DNA of 56,714 nt from Candidatus Magasanikiibacteriota bacterium (GCA_052034405.1 JBPOIO010000016.1:1-56714); one strand, 5' to 3'; counted from the stretch's first letter, positions 54,121-56,714 are shown. The notes: a model not told the origin generated them from the letters alone. Numbers and translations: made by a program.

Positions 54121-54969
54121 CTATAGCACAGCATCGAGTGGGCTGACAATACTGGTATTTTTGATCGTCACATGGGTATAGAGAAGGGTGGTTTCGATTT
54201 TGGTATGTCCCAAGAGCTCCTGTATATAGCGGATATCAGTGCCATTTTCGAGCAGGTGCGTGGCAAAAGAATGGCGCAGGGTATGCGGGTGAACATGTTT
54301 GTGAATATTTGCTTTGTACGCAGCATGACTTACTATTTTTTGAATCGTATGCGTCGTAAGAGCTTTGCTCGTTCCTTCTCGCGTGAAGATAAAATCACTT
54401 GGTTGTTTCAAAAGGCTTTGTTTTTGAAAAATTGATTTGAGTGTGACGGGAAAAAGTGTGTAGCGATCTTTTTTGCCTTTTCCTTTGACAATATGTATAA
54501 GCCCGCGGGCAATATCTATATCACGCATTTTGAGATTGACGAGTTCACTCACACGTAAACCTGCACCATAGAGAAGCGAAATAATAGTGTGGTGCTTGGG
54601 ATTGGTTGTAGCGCTGATGAGTCGTTTGACTTCGTCTTTGGAAAGGACTGTGGGGAGCGTTTTTTCTCTTTTTGACCTCGGGATATGAACAAAAAATTTG
54701 CGCCGGAGAATTTTTTGAAAGTAAAATTTGAGGGCGCTATAAGCAGTATTGATGGTTGAGGCTGAACGATTTTTTGCTTGGAGAGTGGAAAGGTAATCTC
54801 GGATATGTACTTCAAGGATAGACGTTGGAGTGACACTTGCCAGTTTGAGACATTCCTGGATATAATAGGTATAGCTATCAATGGTGTGAGGACTAAAGTT
54901 TTTGAGCGTCATTTCTTGACGCAAAAGCAACATTGGGTCGCGACTGGGGCGATAGTGAGGTGAATCCAT
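54121..54969 (-). CDS. tyrosine site-specific recombinase (Xer/IntI-like, short form)
   Basis: 282 aa. N-terminal SAM-like domain (LKNFSPHTIDSYTYYIQ), catalytic R (GAGLRVSE), KGKGKKDR, HTLRHSFATHLL, LLGHTKIETTLLYTHV, and a C-terminal SPLDA as in integron integrases. Confidence 0.9.
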   Translation of the reverse strand: MDSPHYRPSRDPMLLLRQEMTLKNFSPHTIDSYTYYIQECLKLASVTPTSILEVHIRDYLSTLQAKNRSASTINTAYSALKFYFQKILRRKFFVHIPRSKREKTLPTVLSKDEVKRLISATTNPKHHTIISLLYGAGLRVSELVNLKMRDIDIARGLIHIVKGKGKKDRYTLFPVTLKSIFQKQSLLKQPSDFIFTREGTSKALTTHTIQKIVSHAAYKANIHKHVHPHTLRHSFATHLLENGTDIRYIQELLGHTKIETTLLYTHVTIKNTSIVSPLDAVL

Positions 54970-55062
54970 AGGATAGGGTGGTTACACATTAAGTACTTCT
55001 ATAGTAACAAAAACTTCCTCAAATAAAGCTAAAGAAATAATAAAGTTTTTCTAAAGTCGCAT

Positions 55063-55079
55063 ATAAGGAGTTATCGGAA
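55063..55079 (+). other. candidate attI-like junction (recombinase-proximal boundary of unit 1)
   Basis: ataagga|GTTATCGGAA. GTTATCGGAA (55070-55079) is the exact reverse complement of TTCCGATAAC (55428-55437) at the other end of unit 1. Confidence 0.35.
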
Positions 55080-55100
55080 ATATTTTTTATAAAATAAATT

Positions 55101-55436
55101 ATGGCTACGACATCATTATCAGGTTTGGTAGCAACTCAACCAGGATGGTCACATCAACTGCATGTAGATATAATTGCAATCGGTATAATCGCAGGTGCTT
55201 TTTGTATATTATTACTGATTAAAAAGAAAAAAATAATATCAAAAGTAATTTGGAAATTTCTTTTTTGGTTTTGTTTATTTATTTTTTTATTTTATTCTAT
55301 AAATATATCTGATTCTCCTGGTTCAAAACAATGTCCATTCTTCAATGGAGTATGTTTTGACGTAAAGTTACTGCCTGACAGCATTTTACCCCCTATTTTA
55401 TTTTTACCTTCTGGAGTTTTAAATTACTTCCGATAA
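55101..55436 (+). CDS. cassette-like unit 1 ORF: small membrane protein
   Basis: 111 aa with two hydrophobic segments. Its stop codon lies inside the terminal ...TTCCGATAAC. Confidence 0.45.
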   Translation: MATTSLSGLVATQPGWSHQLHVDIIAIGIIAGAFCILLLIKKKKIISKVIWKFLFWFCLFIFLFYSINISDSPGSKQCPFFNGVCFDVKLLPDSILPPILFLPSGVLNYFR

Positions 55437-55502
55437 CACTGCTTATCCAAAATGCTTTTTCGCTTAGCTCAAAGCACTTCGGATCAAGCAGAAACGTTGT
55501 GC
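55431..55502 (+). other. attC-like folded junction site 1 (72 nt)
   Basis: cgATAAC-ac-TGCTTATCC...GGAT(c)AAGCA-gaaac-GTTGTgc. The 9-bp stem has one bulged C. An inner stem GCTTT/AAAGC (55454-55458/55471-55475) is capped by ttCGCTTAGCTc. Confidence 0.5.
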
Positions 55503-55566
55503 GAAATAATGAAAAGTTTTATAATTTCTTTCAGAAATTAATTTGGGGCTATTTTTTAAATTTTTA
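55496..55566. repeat. left composite inverted repeat of unit 2
   Basis: Outer arm 55496-55521 (gttgtgcgaaataatgaaaagtttta), local palindrome 55522-55540, inner arm 55541-55566 (atttggggctattttttaaattttta). Confidence 0.9.
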
Positions 55567-55577
55567 ATTCTAAAATT

Positions 55578-56504
55578 ATGTTTCAAGGTGTAAAAAACGG
55601 GTGGCAATTAATAAAAGAGTCAGTCAGAGTATTTAATCGTCATCCAAAATTCATCATTCCGCTATTGGTTACTTGGCTTGTTTATGCGCCGATTATCTTA
55701 TATTTGAAATACTGGTTTAATTGGGATGCATATACTGACTCTCAAGTTTTTCTAATTGTATTCGGAATAATTTTTGTTTTTGCCTTTTTGCTTTCATTTT
55801 CTTGCTCTATGTTGCTGGAATTAATCCAACAATTAGAGTCTGGAAAACAAATGAATATCGCAAGTGCGTTCGGACACACATTATCGCACAATACGATAAA
55901 AATATTACCAGTGGTCTTTGTCTGGACAATTATTTGGTTTATCTTGCTTGTGATTCAAGCTCTTTTATCTAAAGATAAAAAAAGAGAAAAAGAGTCATTT
56001 AGTGCTGAAAATGCGGCAAAAACATTAGCTGGTTATCAAAATTTTTCATTATCAAAAGCCTTTTTTAAAGCATTAGAAAAAGGCGTACGCATGGTTGTTT
56101 TCCTAATTCTTCCTGCAATAGCTTGGGAAAATTTGAGTTTTTGGAAATCTGTAAAAAAGGGCATTGCTGTTTTCAAATCTAATCTTTCTGCATTTGTGAC
56201 AGGTTTTGTTCTTACTGGATTGGCAACAGCAATTATCTTTTTACCGCCTGCACTTTTATTTTATATTTCCGATGAAATGGAAATCATATTCCCCGAGTGG
56301 GTGTGGGTGATTACGATAATTTATATTGCATTTGGCTGGAGTTATTCGATTTACCTTGAACAAATGTTTACGGCTGAGTTGTATCTATGGAATCATAAAT
56401 GGGAAAAAGAAGTTACAAAAGCACAGGCGGAAAATAGACCGATTCCAACACTGAATGATATTCCAAGACCATCAGTTCTTGATGAGGTAAATGATCTTTT
56501 ATAA
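55578..56504 (+). CDS. cassette-like unit 2 ORF: polytopic membrane protein
   Basis: 308 aa, about 6 TM helices, with a charged loop KDKKREKESFSAENAAK. Confidence 0.55.
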   Translation: MFQGVKNGWQLIKESVRVFNRHPKFIIPLLVTWLVYAPIILYLKYWFNWDAYTDSQVFLIVFGIIFVFAFLLSFSCSMLLELIQQLESGKQMNIASAFGHTLSHNTIKILPVVFVWTIIWFILLVIQALLSKDKKREKESFSAENAAKTLAGYQNFSLSKAFFKALEKGVRMVVFLILPAIAWENLSFWKSVKKGIAVFKSNLSAFVTGFVLTGLATAIIFLPPALLFYISDEMEIIFPEWVWVITIIYIAFGWSYSIYLEQMFTAELYLWNHKWEKEVTKAQAENRPIPTLNDIPRPSVLDEVNDLL

Positions 56505-56513
56505 AAATAAGGA

Positions 56514-56583
56514 TAAAAATTTAAAAAATAGCCCCAAATATTTTGCTATCGCAAAATTAAAACTTTTCATTACATCGCACAAC
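56514..56583. repeat. right composite inverted repeat of unit 2
   Basis: Inner arm 56514-56539 is the perfect reverse complement of 55541-55566 (26/26). A local palindrome lies at 56540-56557. The outer arm 56558-56583 matches the reverse complement of 55496-55521 except for 2 substitutions. Confidence 0.9.
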
Positions 56584-56678
56584 ACGGCATATCTGGTTAC
56601 GGCTTTTATACAAAAGCCTCCACCCATATTTGCCTCCGCTACGCTACGGCAAACATCAGATATGCCGAAACGTTGGTC
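56577..56678 (+). other. attC-like folded junction site 2 (102 nt)
   Basis: gcACAAC-ac-GGCATATCTG...CAGATATGCC-gaaac-GTTGGtc with a perfect 10-bp stem. Inner hairpins GGCTTTT/AAAAGCC (56601-56618) and TTGCC/GGCAA (56630-56652), the latter capped by tcCGCTACGCTac. Confidence 0.5.
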
Positions 56679-56708
56679 AAAATGTCGCTACGCTCCATTT
56701 TGACCAAC
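56672..56708. repeat. ORF-less unit 3: 37-bp palindrome
   Basis: GTTGGTCAAAATG (56672-56684), tCGCTACGCTc (56685-56695), CATTTTGACCAAC (56696-56708). It is followed by gt-GGCG as the window ends. Confidence 0.85.
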
Positions 56709-56714
56709 GTGGCG

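Follow-up and report, generated by a model that had tools for sequence, protein, structure and literature searches.

A probable integron-like gene-capture platform with a Xer/XerA-type recombinase in a Candidatus Magasanikiibacteriota bacterium

Can a short tyrosine recombinase of the Xer type, devoid of the domain that distinguishes integron integrases, serve an array of gene cassettes? The question is raised by one end of a contig from a Candidatus Magasanikiibacteriota bacterium (GCA_052034405.1 JBPOIO010000016.1:1-56714; the whole stretch of 56,714 nucleotides is called the window hereafter), where a recombinase gene lies divergent from a series of units that start with GTT and have complementary ends. 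Comparative sequence analysis leads us to read this locus, with a probability of roughly 85%, as a chromosomal integron-like gene-capture platform, composed of a Xer/XerA-type recombinase, a divergent attI-like site and cassettes with mostly a single open reading frame (ORF) and folded hairpin sites. The anatomy of the platform, the restriction of its sites to arrays, the covariation of their stems, the exact unit boundaries and the transfer of cassette 2 between distant platforms support this reading. The system is integron-like in function, not a canonical integron. Two departures place it outside the integron family as defined, the lack of the IntI-specific domain and a site geometry unlike that of canonical attC; nor is it dif-type, because there is no duplex core and the sites are folded and asymmetric.

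The locus is organized as follows, R1 being the covariance model of the site family presented below.

54121-54969, minus strand: Xer/XerA-type tyrosine recombinase of 282 amino acids, putative cassette integrase (ORF call, Pfam/NCBIfam)
54970-55072, plus strand: attI-like region, a 100-bp conserved spacer (conservation in loci L001, L004, L005, L014 and L016)
55070-55495, plus strand: cassette 1 (unit 1, 55070-55437), 111-amino-acid membrane ORF followed by its own hairpin site (55438-55495)
55101-55436, plus strand: membrane ORF of 111 amino acids in cassette 1 (ORF call)
55426-55507, plus strand: attC-like site 1 (R1, 66.1 bits, E = 1.2e-11; fold)
55496-56671, plus strand: cassette 2 (unit 2, 55496-56583), 308-amino-acid membrane ORF followed by its own long three-way hairpin site
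55578-56504, plus strand: membrane ORF of 308 amino acids in cassette 2 (ORF call; weak sub-cutoff match to the BPSS1780 family)
56572-56683, plus strand: attC-like site 2, long type with two inner hairpins (R1, 38.8 bits, E = 1.5e-5; fold)
56672-56714, plus strand: P element (unit 3), a 37-bp palindrome without ORF (56672-56708) after which the contig ends (inverted repeat)

ORF calls and Pfam find the 282-residue recombinase, the 100-bp spacer and the two plus-strand units with ORFs of 111 and 308 amino acids where the initial annotation had placed them. That annotation also had the array running off the end of the DNA, which is the case: the window is the whole contig, and the array is thus cut by the assembly.

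The recombinase matches the Pfam Phage_integrase domain (1.2e-40) and two SAM-like N-terminal domains. It scores 225.8 with the XerA family model NF040815 (XerA_Arch, titled 'site-specific tyrosine recombinase/integron integrase' by NCBI), which it passes at a cutoff of 220, and 212.8 with the integron integrase model TIGR02249, below the cutoff of 265 and with a match split in two stretches. Seven further array-linked recombinases score 223-249 and 193-235, respectively. All eight tested are 270-287 amino acids long, above the NF040815 cutoff and below that of TIGR02249, their second-best NCBIfam match (193-235 bits). Among known structures XerA (5hxy) is the best match of the window recombinase with 147.6 bits (5.5e-42), while VchIntIA (2a3v) reaches 146.8 bits, scores so close that the protein is as similar to VchIntIA as to XerA. 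Membership of the XerA family is indicated by both NF040815 and 5hxy. In the alignment to VchIntIA, residues 176-205 of the recombinase (30 amino acids) stand opposite residues 172-243 of IntI4 (72 amino acids); about 42 residues, corresponding to the IntI-specific insertion, hence have no counterpart, as the initial annotation had put forward. The additional domain near patch III, which is the mark of IntI for IntegronFinder and for Messier & Roy, is accordingly missing from the window recombinase. Its C-terminal tail aligns with VchIntIA up to IntI4 residue 318 of 320, around a common SPL motif. No second tyrosine-recombinase homolog was found in the 56.7-kb window, and the look-up of protein records returned none with the exact sequence of the window recombinase. 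Its homologs number 7819 at E <= 1e-20; the named ones come from Magasanikbacteria, Uhrbacteria and the Patescibacteria group, in line with the proposed host of candidate phyla radiation (CPR) type.

Contigs with recombinase homologs of 56-85% identity were fetched for comparison. Small genes, almost without exception on the same strand, form a divergent run beside the recombinase in L001, L005, L014, L016, L018, L049 and L051, that is, at every fetched locus with enough upstream sequence. The contigs of L003, L004, L017, L019, L021 and L050 break off either at the attI-like region or shortly upstream of it, or else inside cassette one or two.

The recombinase ATG and the first GTT (55070) are separated by exactly 100 bp. 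At its 3' end this attI-like region features the box GTCGCATAT (55056-55064), AAGGA and the crossover triplet GTT (55070-55072), and its conservation ends straight after GTT(A), where differing first cassettes start. The window, L001, L004 and L005 have a common sequence up to ...GCATATARGGA/GTT (AAAGTTTTTCTAAAGTCGCATATARGGA) that leads into four different first cassettes. L050 and L051, which encode identical recombinase proteins, are identical in DNA up to CAGTAGTT and diverge right after GTT. Junctions of the form ...RGKA/GTTA recur across the recombinase family. The terminus of the region is GTCGSATAT-N5-6-GTT, and its box GTCGSATAT corresponds to the hairpin 3' arm TCGGAT(C)AT minus the bulged C. 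An insertion site beside the integrase gene, at which cassettes enter, is a defining feature of integrons and is found here: the region is the functional equivalent of attI, with no sequence similarity to known attI sites.

Two further repeats lie in the attI-like regions. In L005 (9925-9880, minus orientation) three direct copies of the box (GTCGCATAT, GTCGCATAT and GTCGGATAT) precede GTT, much as direct repeats are found in attI1, and could be accessory sites for recombinase binding. An inverted repeat GTTAC...GTAAC is positioned just upstream of the recombinase start codon (54981-55008) and kept in L001 and L004, a candidate operator or additional binding site for the recombinase.

Site 1 of the window is composed of R'' (..CCGATAAC), the spacer AC, the stem TGCTT-ATCC...GGAT-C-AAGCA with a bulged C, the spacer GAAAC and R' (GTTGTGCGA). 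Site 2 has R'' ACATCGCACAAC, the spacer AC, a stem GGCATATCTG...CAGATATGCC, the spacer GAAAC and R' GTTGGTCAA; it was left out of the training set of R1 and is still detected, and its long-type architecture is also present at L016 8039-8147. Both window junctions thus read AAC-AC-(stem...stem)-GAAAC-GTT. The constancy of these flanks in the initial annotation holds within the window, while family-wide only a consensus stands, A-N on the 5' side and N-R-A-A-C on the 3' side. The folding check that it had proposed is favourable for junction 2 together with unit 3 (z = -7.6 on the top strand and -7.9 on the bottom strand against shuffles) and modest for junction 1 (z = -1.4 and -2.9). Within the window the motifs GAAACGTT and CGCTWMGCT are confined to 55.4-56.7 kb. 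A terminator scan was not above chance and gave none at the junctions.

The junction repeated in the L001 and L005 arrays is ACATNNNNTAAC-AN-(NNNNN-ATCC...GGAT-(C)-ANNNNN)-NRAAC-GTTANNNNNAAT, and 20 sites from five loci give the consensus ACATNNNNTAAC-AN-NNNNNATCC...GGAT(C)ANNNNN-NRAAC-GTTANNNNNAAT. In the array the elements follow each other as R'' (..CA-TNNNNTAAC), a 2-nt spacer (AC, AA or AG), the L'' arm, a variable tip, the L' arm, the 5-nt spacer NRAAC and G/TT. In the alignment of the 20 sites (A1), a 9-bp L stem with a bulge and the 4-bp GTTA/TAAC pairing are 94.6% paired. Five pairs of the L stem are changed on both sides and none of 500 shuffles reaches the observed score; sliding the partner by 1-3 columns lowers pairing to 20-37%. 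An alignment of 56 sites is 95.2% paired with 77 double-change cells for 26.6 expected, a result that leans toward structure because this alignment was fitted to the model. The stems TGCAT/ATGCA, CCGAT/ATCGG and CGTGT/ACACG coexist in one array served by a single recombinase, so it is pairing, not sequence, that is conserved; such diversity points to intrastrand pairing rather than to a duplex dimer-binding site. The sites have the AAC and GTT boxes, imperfect palindrome, covariation and variable tip of canonical attC, from which they depart by their 2- and 5-nt spacers, a bulge on the ' arm or none (the extrahelical bases of canonical attC being on the '' arm), a conserved L-box sequence, where attC is conserved in structure only, and a much longer R stem. 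The bulged base, C or T on the 3' arm, belongs to the window's lineage. Sites in L018 (6517-6625), L049 (6246-6342) and L051 (930-996), whose recombinases are 56-60% identical to that of the window, keep the 2- and 5-nt spacers and have no 3'-arm bulge, which is therefore not universal in the system.

These sites are found only in arrays. Over 214 kb R1 yields 30 matches, which fall in the window and five related loci, all on the array strand and upstream of the recombinase. It finds zero sites in the remaining ~55 kb of the window, on the far side of the recombinase in the related loci or in the negative controls L006-L013, eight unrelated Xer loci retrieved by a contig scan with a single recombinase protein. 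Dispersed copies independent of a recombinase or array, as expected of repetitive extragenic palindromic (REP) elements, are absent from the window and the locus flanks, which speaks against the generic repeats or terminators that the initial annotation had named as its refutation. A metagenome scan with the site pattern, blind to the recombinase, returned 29 loci in which R1 detects 68 sites, on a single strand per locus. A recombinase homolog of 32-63% identity is present in 9 of these 29 loci; in seven of the nine it directly adjoins the sites and is divergent, in L034 it is divergent at ~7 kb from the sites and in L025 it is on the same strand as the sites. Rfam at gathering thresholds gave no match in the window, L001 or L005. 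In viral contigs a single pattern match was obtained that the site model does not confirm, hence no phage link.

The two ends of each cassette are complementary. For 54 cassettes from many loci it has a median of 22/30 positions, compared to 13/30 for ends of different cassettes. The first 9 bases of a cassette pair with the 9 bases preceding its own hairpin. Next, at positions 10-11 of the end duplex, comes a conserved mismatch of 2 nt (AA or CA at the start, CA or CG at the end), and beyond it 10-60 further cassette-specific pairs. End pairing extends over 20-70 nt, far longer than 7 bp as had been noted for the window. In the latter, cassette 1 pairs 55070-55086 with 55421-55437 (17 nt, 88%, the first 10 perfect) and cassette 2 pairs 55496-55564 with 56515-56583 (69 nt, 71%, including a perfect 26-nt block; 24/26 at its very ends), while unit 3 is an inverted repeat of 56670-56684 with 56696-56710 (15/15). 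The GTT...AAC units with complementary ends described at the outset are thereby recovered. The 2-nt mismatch is conserved in sequence though its flanking pairs are cassette-specific, for instance at 55079-55080 with the region of 56573-56574 in the window and in L001 and L005. End polarity is constant in all 54 cassettes, hence no sign of inversion. The long end stems form only when cassette ends are brought together, either in an excised circle or in looped single-stranded DNA, and may be indirect evidence for a folded circular intermediate.

Cassettes have a median length of 659 bp and their longest ORF is co-oriented with the array in 50 of 53. Gene content is almost wholly different between the arrays of relatives and includes Fic, NUDIX, MazG-like, DUF4440, cupin, SET, CDPS and ankyrin proteins, together with many without family match. 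The 111-amino-acid ORF of cassette 1 has no family match in Pfam or NCBIfam, and its body is matched by none of the fetched loci; matches to this cassette elsewhere are limited to the attI-like region and the hairpin site. The one ORF common to fetched arrays, of OmdA type (L005 and L016), is alike only within the ORF and is for this reason uninformative on boundaries.

Comparison of relatives exposes discrete units that come and go. L014 and L021 are 97-99% identical strains with attI-like regions that are the same to GTTA. Beyond it they have ~1.6 kb (L014) and ~10 kb (L021) of unrelated cassettes, and they have a distal block in common. L014 has exactly one extra unit of 496 bp (DUF4440 ORF and hairpin) bounded by two ...CGGTGAAC-GTTA junctions (also written ...ATCATCGGTGAAC-GTTA). 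These differences are the pattern that would be expected from cassette entry at attI and excision of a single cassette. Cassette 2 with its downstream hairpin (~1.18 kb) recurs in L052 (9512-10700, 89% over 1189 bp) and in L054 (1332-2436, 87%). Homology starts at the GTT of 55496 and ends just after that of 56672, the downstream three-way hairpin included, while the upstream hairpins are unrelated in the window, L052 and L054. The recombinase of L052 is only 42% identical to that of the window, its first cassette is different and its flank carries MurB rather than a Wzy_C ligase. In L054 (1201-2509) the cassette-2 homolog lies between two sites with no recombinase within the 12 kb fetched; either the array extends past the contig start or this is an integrase-less cluster. 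The cassette-2 protein has hundreds of homologs, down to ~52% identity among the 120 best matches listed (P0122-P0240), many of them on contigs of ~1.0-1.1 kb, near cassette size. Their named sources include several CPR groups and metagenome-assembled genomes of Omnitrophota, Elusimicrobia and Anaerolineae, the non-CPR ones suggesting wide horizontal spread or binning noise.

A cassette made of an ORF and a 3' site that moves as a discrete unit, a requirement for integrons, is thus observed with cassette 2 in L052 and L054 and with the L014/L021 pair. The variable unit content predicted for relatives is found in three comparisons that differ after GTT (window/L001/L004/L005, L050/L051 and L014/L021). 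The cassette logic initially ascribed to the locus is upheld by own-end complementarity, by the GTT boundaries and by cassette 2 moving with its downstream hairpin. With respect to the G/TT crossover, first bases complement the cassette's own R'' and natural boundaries are all at GTT(A), the exact phosphodiester bond being beyond sequence resolution. An alternative unit in which the hairpin is owned by the following ORF, with a crossover AA/C in R'', was rejected: no hairpin separates the attI-like region from the GTT and cassette that directly follow it, cassette 2 moves together with the hairpin on its downstream side and not the upstream one, and repeated cassette families keep similar downstream and different upstream hairpins.

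In the mechanism proposed for the platform, each cassette would start at the conserved GTT and end with its own imperfect hairpin site, laid out as R'' (..TAAC), 2-nt spacer, L stem, variable tip, other L arm, 5-nt NRAAC and G/TT. The attI-like site would be where cassettes come in, and recombination between one hairpin site and the next would release them, with a crossover at or next to G/TT, a position that would make the first bases of a cassette the complement of those that immediately precede its hairpin. The site would function in a folded form, as a hairpin or a cruciform. In the excised circle the cassette ends would zip into a stem of 9 bp, the 2-nt mismatch and 10-60 more bp, with the hairpin at its tip. 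The neighbouring recombinase is the presumed catalyst and would act on a single-stranded substrate, perhaps on one given strand, for which stem covariation within one array and the asymmetry of the sites are indirect evidence; expression may start from a promoter near the attI-like site, and incoming DNA may arrive via natural competence.

Several points weigh against this interpretation. The evidence is comparative throughout. The window recombinase lacks the insertion that IntI activity needs according to Messier & Roy (2001), as cited in PMC9668308. The family is abundant in candidate phyla, where Smyshlyaev et al. (2021, PMC8138268) grouped Xer-related recombinases as 'Cand' and assumed a Xer role, so that chromosome dimer resolution as a presumed housekeeping Xer could be its primary function. 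The classical integron model has no need of long cassette-specific end stems. In integrons a Pc promoter in or near intI or attI drives the cassettes, which have no promoter themselves. A promoter consensus scan of 54900-56714 was not above chance, with zero matches inside the attI-like region, leaving this region without an above-chance adjoining promoter. Integrons recombine the folded single (bottom) strand; here the wobble cells of the top strand, 21 A·C for 13 G·T, are not decisive on strand choice. The one-cassette indel between L014 and L021 is flanked by 17 identical bases, and this single event could also stem from homology; the attI boundaries share only GTTA, for which homology cannot account.

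How do other explanations fare? The locus could be canonical after all, a divergent integron whose integrase truly belongs to the IntI family and whose sites are genuine attC, new solely in its taxonomic range. Such an origin would account for the overall logic (divergent recombinase, attI-like site, GTT/AAC-bounded cassettes, 3' hairpin), for TIGR02249 as second-best NCBIfam match at 193-235 bits, and for a C-terminal tail that aligns with VchIntIA nearly to its end around the SPL motif. It is nevertheless improbable, given the 30 residues in place of the 72 of IntI4, the eight recombinases out of eight below the TIGR02249 cutoff of 265 that pass NF040815 XerA_Arch, the conserved L-box sequence (TATCC/GGAT) and the end pairing of 20-70 nt. 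Canonical attC sites such as those of aadA7 and VCR have spacers of about 5 and 6 nt, in contrast to 2 and 5 nt here, where moreover the bulge is on the 3' arm or absent in some lineages. A slightly smaller chance is given to a recombinase that is only the housekeeping Xer, the array being a variable island formed by duplex Xer/dif-type recombination, as in pdif modules and integrative mobile elements exploiting Xer (IMEX), or else by a different enzyme encoded elsewhere. Units with inverted ends recall pdif modules, the protein passes the XerA equivalog model, and the family is ubiquitous in candidate phyla with an assumed Xer role for the 'Cand' subgroup (PMC8138268). Junctions, however, have no 11-6-11 dif-like duplex core; crossover flanks are asymmetric (2 and 5 nt, bulge), which is incompatible with identical duplex central regions, and stems covary within one array. 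Linkage to the enzyme is indicated by the start of the arrays, which in all fetched loci of sufficient upstream length lies directly at the region upstream of the recombinase and has an attI-like site, and again by the adjoining divergent recombinases of the site-anchored loci.

The hairpins are also intergenic and repeated, contigs break at them, and 17 identical bases flank the indel of the L014/L021 pair (the Y cassette), all of which REP-like repeats or terminators with ordinary homologous recombination or deletion between them could produce. That explanation is very improbable in view of the absence of sites from the rest of the window and the non-array flanks, their strict orientation and the lack of predicted terminators at junctions; cassette-specific end complementarity is not expected of terminators, and the attI boundaries, which share only GTTA with the hairpin sites, are yet precise in three independent comparisons. 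Inverted repeats that flank each unit beside a tyrosine recombinase could finally be inversion sites for phase variation of the shufflon or inverton kind, flipping genes relative to a promoter. This has next to no likelihood: 54 of 54 cassettes keep the same end polarity with no flipped copy, ORFs are co-oriented with the array in 50 of 53, and strains vary by presence, absence and replacement, not by inversion. The integron-like platform remains the preferred reading.

The array also contains units that are not ordinary cassettes. Unit 3 is one of them: a palindrome without ORF, as first described, it is a recurrent ORF-less palindromic element (P) rather than a regular cassette. The window copy reads GTTGGTCAAAATG, loop TCGCTACGCTC and CATTTTGACCAAC, followed by GTGGCG, the start of a recurrent GC-rich element. 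The general form of the mini-palindrome is GTT-N10, loop TCGCTNCGCTC and N10-AAC, with arm sequences that differ between arrays. Homologs of P plus GTGGCGCGG occur in L014 and L004, in both of which they come first after the attI-like region, and in L048 and L001. Where sequence continues (window, L014, L048 and L001) P precedes GTGGCGCGG, the start of the GC-rich element, with which the far end of that element, CCGCGCCAC-GTT, can pair. In L052 the start of a similar unit, with GTT and the loop motif, follows the cassette 2 copy at the contig end, and the contigs of the window, L004 and L052 all terminate at or just after a P-type element. The P-type elements and other recurrent features are positioned as follows.

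P-type elements: window 56672-56714; L014 9890-9700 (minus); L004 1-30; L048 950-1077; L001 7075-7010 (minus); L052 10690-10717
Hairpin tips with an 11-nt loop: window 55459-55470, 56635-56647 and 56685-56695; also in L001, L005, L018 and L049
Cassette family with conserved ends: L001 9425-8870, 7010-6140 and 5500-4530 (minus orientation); L005 8200-6300; L048 126-894

Many hairpin tips carried by unrelated stems have a similar 11-nt loop (TCGCTACGCTC, TTCGCTTAGCTC, TCACTGCGTTC, CGCTTCGCT); that the loop is conserved and the stems vary suggests that another factor binds there. The cassettes of the third family have ~100-bp conserved ends (GTTATGTAACATACATTTTTTTCTTCTTTTTTG... / ...TGTACATTACATAAC) and two conserved internal hairpins. 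Those of L001 and L005, read directly, carry GC-rich ORFs in reverse orientation, and their high GC content in an AT-rich genome suggests a foreign origin. The first L001 copy has a promoter of its own, TTGACA-17-TATACT, and codes for a hydrophobic peptide of 35 amino acids. It has the look of a toxin and is reminiscent of the toxin-antitoxin cassettes that sedentary integrons carry in reverse. GC skew has no switch within the window and mixed signs across loci. As a reading of array orientation relative to replication it is inconclusive, because it is confounded by gene strand.

The additional domain that defines integron integrases is held to be needed for recombining folded attC sites. If a recombinase without the IntI domain runs a widespread cassette system, this domain is not a prerequisite for integron-type gene capture, and such a system would provide a natural comparison for the recognition of folded sites. 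Integron integrases are thought to derive from Xer-like recombinases, an origin that becomes directly testable. A broader proposal, to which we give a little less than an even chance, is that a second, phylum-wide integron lineage exists in CPR/Patescibacteria, in which XerA/Xer-type recombinases without the IntI-specific domain would capture and excise cassettes via folded sites with long cassette-specific stems. Relative to classical integrons this lineage may be ancestral or a sister branch. Its enzymes may be the 'missing integrase' of the arrays that other ultrasmall lineages have without IntI, and one enzyme may also act as the cell's only Xer. A screen that demands the IntI-specific profile would miss these platforms as complete integrons. 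CPR bacteria, a major part of bacterial diversity, have tiny genomes; the hypervariable array, with its Fic, NUDIX, membrane and toxin-like genes and its exchange across hosts with recombinases of just 42% identity, suggests that they acquire genes horizontally by a dedicated route. The platform also explains the recurrent metagenome assembly breaks at this locus. Full-text searches, with most subscription journals outside their scope, gave no report of CPR bacteria in which Xer-type recombinases serve cassette arrays, and an earlier description is possible.

Among known systems the closest are integrons with their IntI, attI, Pc and attC components, in particular the sedentary chromosomal ones such as the Vibrio superintegron. 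Both have a recombinase gene divergent from an adjoining insertion site and a one-directional array of mostly single short ORFs (median cassette here 659 bp). Both have a 3' imperfect palindrome with 5'-AAC and GTT-3' boxes, an asymmetric internal spacer, a variable tip and a covarying structure, as well as a G/TT crossover with a cassette start that complements its own R'' box. Turnover is attI-proximal beside common distal cassettes, and the content is typical of integron cassettes (Fic, NUDIX, MazG, DUF4440, cupin, small membrane proteins, toxin-like reversed units). Unlike integrons, the platform has a recombinase without the IntI-specific insertion that is below the cutoff of the integron-integrase hidden Markov model, and is hosted by CPR/Patescibacteria. 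Its spacers are of 2 and 5 nt, the bulged base is on the arm beside GTT and missing in some lineages, and the L-box sequence is conserved (TATCC/GGAT). The R stem has 9 bp, the conserved 2-nt mismatch and 10-60 cassette-specific pairs, compared to 7 bp in integrons.

XerA/dif, IMEX and the pdif modules of Acinetobacter, the latter being discrete gene units bounded by inverted recombinase sites, have the recombinase family in common with the platform (NF040815; 5hxy as best PDB match). They differ from it in their duplex 28-bp dif-type core, in place of which folded asymmetric hairpins with covarying stems are found here, and by the attI-like entry point beside the recombinase gene and the directional array of the present system. 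In chromosome dimer resolution the dif site is a single duplex of two inverted ~11-bp arms and a centre of 6-8 bp, located at the replication terminus. Archaeal integrons (Ghaly et al. 2022, PMC9668308) are likewise metagenomic cassette arrays of ultrasmall or uncultivated lineages. Their definition requires the IntI-specific domain and canonical attC models, and that study reports 6 IntIs for 75 array-bearing genomes, most arrays having no detectable IntI; the recombinase adjoining the arrays described here is in contrast of XerA type and without the IntI-specific domain. The 'Cand' simple tyrosine recombinases (PMC8138268) probably belong to the same protein family. Their description gives a presumed Xer role and no associated element, whereas here they stand at cassette arrays.

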